Assembly: GCA_965202805.1 (NCBI GenBank)
Contig: OZ241869.1
Span: 2,912,001 to 2,976,000, forward strand
Reading direction: 5' to 3'
DNA length: 64,000 bases
DNA from: Longimicrobiales bacterium
GTDB lineage: Bacteria; Gemmatimonadota; Gemmatimonadetes; Longimicrobiales; Gaopeijiaceae
This document shows positions 57,539-57,761 of this stretch, in pieces. The notes under the pieces were generated by a model. The model saw only the letters and a list, made by a program, of their open reading frames with translations, made no database searches and was not told the origin of the DNA. Both the position numbers and the translations under genes were made by a program. Each line of letters opens with the position of its first letter. Positions within the stretch are counted from its first letter, which is position 1.

Positions 57539-57590
57539 AAAAAGAAAACGGCCCATCGAAGTCCGCCGTGGAAGCGGACCCGATGGGCCG
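57539..57590 (-). terminator. Intrinsic terminator in the 5' leader of the ABC/DUF1854 operon (attenuator)
   Basis: Minus strand CGGCCCATCG-GGTCCGC-TTCCACG-GCGGACTT-CGATGGGCCG-TTTTCTTTTT, 74 nt before the ATG and in the same orientation as the gene. Confidence 0.85.
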
Positions 57591-57617
57591 GACTTTCTCG
57601 GAAAGCCTCTGGCTCTG

Positions 57618-57761
57618 TTAGGGTTCAGCCTCCCTGGGCGGCGTGCCCCCGGCGACGCGCGCTACCGCGCGGCCCGCGGGCACGACGATCCGGAATTGCA
57701 CCGGAACGGGACGCACTCGCGCCCTCCGGGCCCGGATCGGATGGAACTGAAGAACTCTCAT
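57618..57761 (-). CDS. Putative 47-aa leader peptide ending Glu-Pro-stop
   Basis: MRVLQFHPIRARRARVRPVPVQFRIVVPAGRAVARVAGGTPPREAEP*; the stop lies 27 nt upstream of the terminator stem. Below the ORF-track cutoff; weak SD. Confidence 0.6.
   Translation of the reverse strand: MRVLQFHPIRARRARVRPVPVQFRIVVPAGRAVARVAGGTPPREAEP

Follow-up and report, generated by a model that had tools for sequence, protein, structure and literature searches.

A conserved leader with a uORF and an intrinsic terminator, probably a ribosome-coupled attenuator, precedes the ABC/DUF1854 operon of Gemmatimonadota and Myxococcota

The ABC/DUF1854 locus and its leader

The window, the whole 64,000-nucleotide stretch of Longimicrobiales DNA that was analysed, carries on its minus strand an operon whose first gene (55087..57465) codes for an ABC transporter of the exporter fold (PF00664 and PF00005) with an extra N-terminal region of ~195 aa, and whose next gene (54514..55083) codes for a DUF1854 protein (PF08909, E 4.9e-36). 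The N-terminal region (57465-56881, minus strand) displays invariant motifs and has no Pfam match. At 88-95% identity of the ABC protein, the nearest relatives come from MAGs. The ABC gene has in-frame candidate starts at five positions (57540, 57522, 57504, 57486 and 57465), with a duplicated MKRR-encoding unit among them (57540-57465, minus strand); homology begins at 57465, the start assigned in a preliminary description of the locus, and the other in-frame starts lie upstream of it. The operon is flanked by genes for a divergent LRR protein with an M66-like peptidase stretch (58114-61287, plus strand) and for a large cadherin/Ig-repeat surface protein (49159-54225, minus strand).

The same gene pair, in the same order, is displayed by the cyanophycin-associated ABC + DUF1854 systems; the source describing DUF1854 in Betaproteobacteria proposes a role in polymer efflux and reports that the homologues of this pair are co-fit with the cyanophycin synthetase gene cphA (10.1101/072470). 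However, both proteins of the window score below the cut-offs of the cyanophycin-associated families (633.9 bits against a cut-off of 880 for NF052233 and 83.6 bits against 150 for NF052234), and the Ralstonia locus L309 lacks a match to our leader model R1 (see below). A cyanophycin link in this host was rejected, as its 98%-complete genome holds no cyanophycin synthetase (TIGR02068; best score 103 bits against a cut-off of 850). Among the Firmicute ABC/DUF1854 loci, that of Paenibacillus (L108:4270-3700, minus strand) has a leader of another kind, in which a terminator-like hairpin can be made out by eye, and is preceded by a CD3324-family gene (NF040785, over cut-off), while the pairs in L123, L125 and L126 directly follow the end of what we take, by eye, to be a HelD/UvrD-type-helicase-like gene.

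Upstream of the ABC gene on the same strand lies a uORF (57618..57761) with an ATG at 57761, 47 sense codons ending in GAA CCC (Glu-Pro) and a TAA stop at 57620-57618. The stop is followed in the sequence by CAGAGCCAGAG, a small spacer hairpin (57592..57606, minus strand), the hairpin of an intrinsic terminator (57590-57549; whole terminator 57539..57590, minus strand) and the U-tract, TTTTCTTTTT, at 57548-57539. These elements had all been listed in the preliminary description and are confirmed by the sequence and by folding: the 111-nt terminator region has a z-score of -3.99, and 0/200 shuffles were equally stable. A consensus promoter/terminator scan of the window returned 0 promoters and 0 terminators, the simple scanner having missed this terminator. 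Folds predict that the post-stop CAGAGCC (57611..57617, minus strand) pairs either with the terminator base or with a GGCTT just 5′ of the uORF start, and they nest the spacer hairpin, whose sequence is not conserved beyond the window clade, within a predicted antiterminator (see below). The uORF peptide has 0 matches in Pfam and NCBIfam, and there is no clear Shine-Dalgarno sequence 5′ of the window uORF. The comparison with Rfam for which the preliminary description had called gave 0 matches in the window at E up to 1. An RNA run, X1 (share 0.13), covered only bits of the ABC gene, with the leader outside its coverage; a second run, X2, spans the stretch and may be source DNA.

Promoter-like motifs were recovered 5′ of the uORF and not after the terminator. 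The window carries a candidate ECF-sigma promoter (TGAAAC-N17-CGTA; 57888..57914, minus strand), predicted from conservation in the window clade: the boxes are invariant in 10/10 leaders of this clade, while their flanks display indels. The genome has five such sites, namely that of the window and four others, and the same boxes are described for the sigmaW promoters of B. subtilis (PMC5758882). Across the wider collection, a sigma70-like TTG-N19-21-TANNNT motif is found upstream of the uORF in 94/138 leaders, as against 5 in a control window.

Conservation and distribution of the leader

To the window we added those of the 44 top ABC loci that had usable upstream DNA, namely 39, giving 40 orthologous leaders (L006, L023, L033, L039 and L043 were left out). 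All 40 feature an in-frame ATG 37-55 codons 5′ of the stop, whereas each shifted frame does so in 0/40. The conservation of uORF and terminator at orthologous loci, on which the preliminary description hinged, is thereby upheld, although this set cannot test the terminal proline because the stop was chosen by a CC-containing pattern. The terminator itself is 98.4% paired over the cells of 28 aligned leaders, with two-sided changes at 4/11 pairs (15 two-sided cells), and its covariation score lies above all 500 shuffles, a control that is inflated by the relatedness of the sequences.

A metagenome scan with a terminator-only query, blind to the uORF, recovered at least 120 loci; among the matches listed, 96 (66/80 plus 30/40) lie upstream of the ABC gene, and the uORF end is present in those of these ABC loci that have upstream DNA. 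A covariance model from the 28 leaders matched 17/151 Gemmatimonadota genomes, with 16 of the matches 5′ of the ABC gene. Against the window's own genome it found one full copy; no second copy was recovered there by motif, pattern or model, as the other R1 matches were terminator-only or had E >0.5. The N-terminal region of the ABC protein is found in 52/401 genomes of the phylum (5 of them weak), and all 27 upstream regions from such genomes feature the leader, with a degenerate terminator in L278. Beyond this phylum, the gene is present in 6/201 Myxococcota genomes, and all six have the leader, one of them in degenerate form. A pattern for the junction of uORF end and terminator matched 8/351 genomes; the stop is genuine in five of the matches, all of them before the ABC gene, and four that read TGG look like chance. 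The leader also has a cultured carrier, Gemmatirosa kalamazoonensis KBS708, on plasmid 1 (R1, 82.5 bits).

There was no R1 match in 18 Firmicute ABC/DUF1854 regions, in L106 or in the Ralstonia locus. No Rfam family reached its gathering score at 12 loci, and neither these 12, which include one Firmicute region (Paenibacillus), nor L138 gave an Rfam riboswitch or T-box. We found no prior description of the leader in the main texts of the literature; RNA-motif survey tables in supplements could list it. The impression voiced earlier that the junction recurs in other bacteria was right for its general type, GCACCC-TAG plus terminator, which recurs widely; the 4.02-Mb genome has a single copy of the exact 13-mer CCCTAACAGAGCC, which elsewhere is confined to the window's own clade. 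Taken together, the leader is real, conserved and unannotated, and is probably an attenuator.

The same leader is also found before genes unrelated to ABC/DUF1854. These include MATE genes (L166 and L201 by Pfam, L242 by resemblance; the three may be one lineage) and an MFS gene that is below the Pfam cut-off (L172), whose leaders are matched by R1 over its full length at 34-58 bits. Further instances precede an RNase H-like gene (PF04308; L160), a Cys-rich ORF without a family (L179) and a tRNA-like element (L243:189-541, plus strand; Rfam RF00005, 41.5 bits, not called by ARAGORN). The last of these leaders has a 27-codon uORF ending in Ala-Pro-TGA and a terminator, and the element downstream of it, which is not a leader, was the sole Rfam match over the gathering score in a later scan of the leaders. 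R1 matches L160, L179 and L243 in the terminator only, by which these loci had been selected.

The end of the uORF and its peptide

For the analysis of the uORF end, 161 records were reduced to 144 distinct junctions (L163 was too short), and after dropping L279 (a duplicate whose terminator had been called wrongly) and L150 we retained 142 leaders; five of their stops were set by hand, the starts are heuristic, and 40 later terminator-scan loci stand outside this set. The leader sequences are related, and the counts given above and below are accordingly not independent. The uORFs span 18-57 codons, and the distance from stop to terminator is 19-36 nt (median 26; exactly 26 in 78/142). The stops are TAG in 126, TAA in 13 and TGA in 3, such that UAG or UAA is used by 139/142 leaders as against 39% in the host. 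The last residue is proline in 134/142, compared with 125/1415 long ORFs of the host, and the eight others end in Ser (2), Thr (2), Ala (2), Leu or Asp; the ABC leader L236, outside this count, has the junction GCC ACC TAG and possibly another non-Pro end. The terminal proline codon is CCC in 122, CCA in 6, CCT in 5 and CCG in only 1, whereas in the host genome CCG makes up 49% and CCC 41%. The commonest last pair is Ala-Pro (115), with Glu-Pro in 9.

The preliminary description had read the Glu-Pro-stop as a stalling sensor in the manner of YbeL or TnaC, and this reading did not survive the comparison: with Ala-Pro as the prevailing pair and some leaders lacking the terminal proline altogether, the Glu-Pro end, judged from the aligned junctions, is a clade-level accident and, not being conserved, is unlikely to be the sensor. 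Proline before a stop does slow termination according to PMC3082878, and termination stalling at Pro-stop is described for YbeL and TnaC (PMC3834316, PMC3082878); YbeL, as presented there, is a protein tagged by tmRNA and not a regulatory leader, and TnaC needs a conserved peptide, which is not the case here.

A more general version, in which a nascent (R/G/E)-A-P-stop arrests release and the signal is the release rate (RF1, rescue factors or a ligand), fares better, and we regard it as unlikely but as the main rival to the model proposed below. The terminal-proline and UAG/UAA biases, the end RAP in 79/142 leaders and the slowing of termination by a proline before the stop all speak for it. 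RAPP-type arrest peptides arrest in elongation with a second Pro, which is not conserved in these leaders. We keep the release-rate sensor in play because proline also persists where it is unpaired or only partly paired in the predicted antiterminator: L149 keeps its Pro-stop though the pairing strand lies 3′ of the stop, and five leaders (L271, L272, L275-L277) have a CCA codon whose third base is unpaired. Against it stand the 8/142 leaders without a terminal proline, the near-exclusive use of CCC, with CCG once, and an upstream peptide that lacks conservation and part of which is read in more than one frame. Where proline is replaced by leucine (L180), the pairing is kept through a G-U wobble. 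Most of the bias is accounted for by common descent together with RNA pairing.

The remainder of the peptide is not conserved. There is no conserved amino-acid run across the 142 leaders, and among nine uORFs of the window clade we counted 17 nonsynonymous against 14 synonymous variants, compared with 13 against 23 in the first 47 codons of the ABC gene. An internal hairpin motif with RNA-level conservation in 74/142 leaders is read in two frames (42 versus 32). A macrolide-type R/K-X-R/K motif, counted without a control, is present in 104/142 leaders and hence not universal.

An attenuator specific for one amino acid (Arg, or Ile/Val), serving a transporter whose cargo, taken up or exported, is a peptide or an amino-acid polymer, as with its cyanophycin-linked relatives, is quite improbable. 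It could draw on the 10 Arg of the window peptide, on Ile (6.2%) and Val (8.2%) frequencies above those of the shifted frames (1.3% and 4.2%), on ATA as the commonest second codon (35/142) and on the Betaproteobacterial homologues that are co-fit with cphA (10.1101/072470). However, no run stands at a fixed position, internal Arg, Ile and Val are missing from 2, 9 and 1 of the 142 leaders respectively, the host lacks a cyanophycin synthetase, and MATE and MFS genes have this leader too. An Arg-sensing leader in particular was rejected, as Arg is below the shifted-frame level (14.0% in frame versus 19.5%) and forms no fixed run.

A predicted antiterminator formed by the last codons

In folds of the nascent RNA, with the 3′ arm of the terminator withheld, the uORF end pairs with the terminator arm or loop over at least 5 bp in 135/142 leaders, compared with 626/1420 shuffled sequences (44%). 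The consensus of this predicted antiterminator is GAGCACCC paired with GGGTGCTC. In the window, its 5′ strand (57621..57641, minus strand) comprises the last seven sense codons including the proline codon CCC, and its 3′ strand (57563..57581, minus strand) comprises the upper 5′ arm and loop of the terminator, so that 57641-57621 pairs with 57581-57563 in a helix that is longer in the window clade.

Several leaders keep the helix with two-sided changes (L098, L271, L272, L274-L277, L022 and L273), reading GCGCC/GGCGC in L098, L271, L272 and L274-L277 and CGGATACC/GGTATCCG in L273; both strands are also altered in L010, with the helix kept. The core is nearly invariant and 86% paired in the fixed 28-row alignment, and its covariation there shows no excess (89/500 shuffles reach the percentage and 175/500 the score). 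A further alignment, A3, was left out of the pair counts on account of a wrong-strand row, a truncated row and a sliding helix register. A matrix of cognate versus non-cognate duplexes was noisy, the cognate pair ranking in the top three in only 7/16. As covariation in the 28 rows does not exceed that of the shuffles and the cross-pairing is noisy, the antiterminator is predicted and not proven.

The position of the ribosome bears directly on this helix. The expected extent of the helix in the window is 16.5 bp without a ribosome or with one 44, 36, 30, 26 or 14 codons from the end; the value is 5.4 bp at 22 codons and 11.6 bp at 18 codons, and falls to 0-2.2 bp with the ribosome in the last 10 codons. 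Over 29 leaders, the cost of freeing the terminator arm drops from a median of ~12 to 7-9 kcal/mol when the ribosome is at most 6 codons from the end, although this drop is absent or reversed in several (e.g., L001, L014, L016, L028 and L034). Since the last codons form the 5′ strand of the predicted antiterminator, a ribosome parked at the stop would favour termination, and the polarity is thus probably the reverse of a TnaC-like reading, as far as these models go. By the same geometry, the release-rate scheme would have the operon off during arrest at the stop and on when release is faster.

The preliminary description had named another possible antiterminator, the pairing of codons 8-13 with the 5′ arm of the terminator; on that model, a ribosome stalled at Glu-Pro-stop would leave these codons free to pair, and the operon would be on. 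The duplex does exist, reaching -27.8 kcal/mol in the window, being significant in 8/10 window-clade leaders and having an expected 6.1 bp when a ribosome stands 22 codons short of the end. It is neither conserved nor predicted to be operative: it is significant in only 13/116 other leaders, and for a ribosome at the stop its expected extent is just 0.9 bp, since the codon 8-13 strand then refolds into a local hairpin (57686..57740, minus strand; found in the MFE and centroid folds and the ensemble calculation). Given also the rarity of the Glu-Pro end, we consider this scheme very unlikely. The broader proposal that a ribosome on the leader controls the ABC operon probably holds, in the form of a conserved ribosome-coupled attenuator; stalling at the stop as its on-switch probably does not, since a ribosome there would cover the predicted antiterminator strand.

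At equilibrium, the complete terminator wins in the window at every ribosome position, so the switch must be kinetic. This dominance, together with the RNA-level conservation of the internal hairpin and the lack of a clear Shine-Dalgarno sequence before the window uORF, could also be read as a constitutive partial terminator or a protein-bound leader with an incidental uORF. The frame-specific conservation of the start and the fixed spacing from stop to terminator across two phyla argue against this, and we give it little credence.

Outside the window clade, a GTGATC before the terminator is complementary to a GATCAC beside the ABC start in 84/139 leaders, which points to a possible second, translational layer. 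Pairing between start-proximal and post-stop sequence was significant in only 49/141 leaders.

Proposed mechanism and its relationship to known systems

We propose that the leader is probably a default-off, ribosome-coupled transcription attenuator of ABC/DUF1854, which slow or failing translation of the uORF would turn on. A ribosome keeping up with the polymerase would reach the last codons and the stop and mask the antiterminator strand, whereupon the terminator would fold; slow release at the Pro-stop would prolong its stay there and reduce basal read-through, and the Pro-stop may thus act as a dwell timer that sets the basal level. If the ribosome stalls well upstream, or is absent, the last codons would be free to pair with the 5′ arm ahead of the synthesis of the 3′ arm, and with the antiterminator formed RNA polymerase would read into the operon. 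As the peptide is without conservation and the same leader stands before MATE, MFS, RNase H-like and tRNA-like elements, the signal is likely to be general translation stress, such as that from ribosome-targeting compounds or a shortage of any amino acid, and would be neither a single amino acid nor a Glu-Pro arrest.

This proposal has close parallels. The whiB7/wblC uORF of Actinobacteria is described as directing the terminator when translated efficiently and the antiterminator, with read-through, when translated inefficiently; it responds to antibiotics or amino-acid shortage and is Ala-rich at 25-40% (PMC10274678). Our leader shares its compositionally mixed uORF and, as proposed, its translation logic; unlike whiB7, where the target is a transcription factor, it precedes transporters and has 12% Ala, and the likeness drawn is one of logic. 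B. subtilis bmrB offers a leader ORF, of 53 codons, with alternative hairpins that gate the bmrBCD ABC exporter under induction by ribosome-targeting antibiotics (PMC4191407). The likeness lies in a leader ORF and, as predicted here, alternative hairpins before an ABC exporter; as that source presents it, the bmrB terminator lies inside the ORF, whereas here it is 19-36 nt after the stop, and blocked translation lowers bmrB read-through, whereas here the lack of translation is predicted to favour it. A mixed uORF before efflux- or resistance-type genes, as in the whiB7/bmrB type, is thus present here.

For layout, the nearest counterpart is E. coli ivbL, the ilvBN leader, which ends in GCG CCG TAG (Ala-Pro-UAG) 27 nt before its terminator and whose last two codons are, by eye, complementary to the terminator 5′ arm/loop. 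The pheL leader also ends in Pro-stop. Both differ from this leader, which has no run, in having a regulatory codon run and biosynthetic targets, and R1 matches neither of them. TnaC, by comparison, works through Rho. The basal level of pheL is reported to depend on ribosome release at the stop (PMC3082878). By analogy, the mechanism proposed here would combine whiB7 logic with an ivbL-like layout.

Implications

The mechanism itself is textbook; what the leader adds is a conserved and probably cis-regulatory RNA family, absent from Rfam, in two phyla whose gene regulation has been little described, Gemmatimonadota and Myxococcota, and the cultured carrier KBS708 makes the model directly testable. 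It also warns against naming a peptide an arrest peptide on the strength of its two final residues, as a Pro-stop ending a leader can be mostly a constraint of RNA pairing. For ABC/DUF1854, the leader is the first regulatory clue to a role where no cyanophycin synthetase exists.

More tentatively, and on present evidence doubtfully, we suggest that a portable scaffold (a uORF ending in GCACCC-UAG, ~26 nt and a terminator) has been grafted before ABC/DUF1854, MATE, MFS, RNase H-like and tRNA-like elements in these poorly cultured phyla, where it might constitute a translation-stress regulon without a regulator, with Pro-UAG as a release-factor-dependent timer and the ECF-sigma promoter as a second input in the window clade. 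If so, the cyanophycin-independent ABC/DUF1854 pair would be an exporter of translation-inhibiting compounds.
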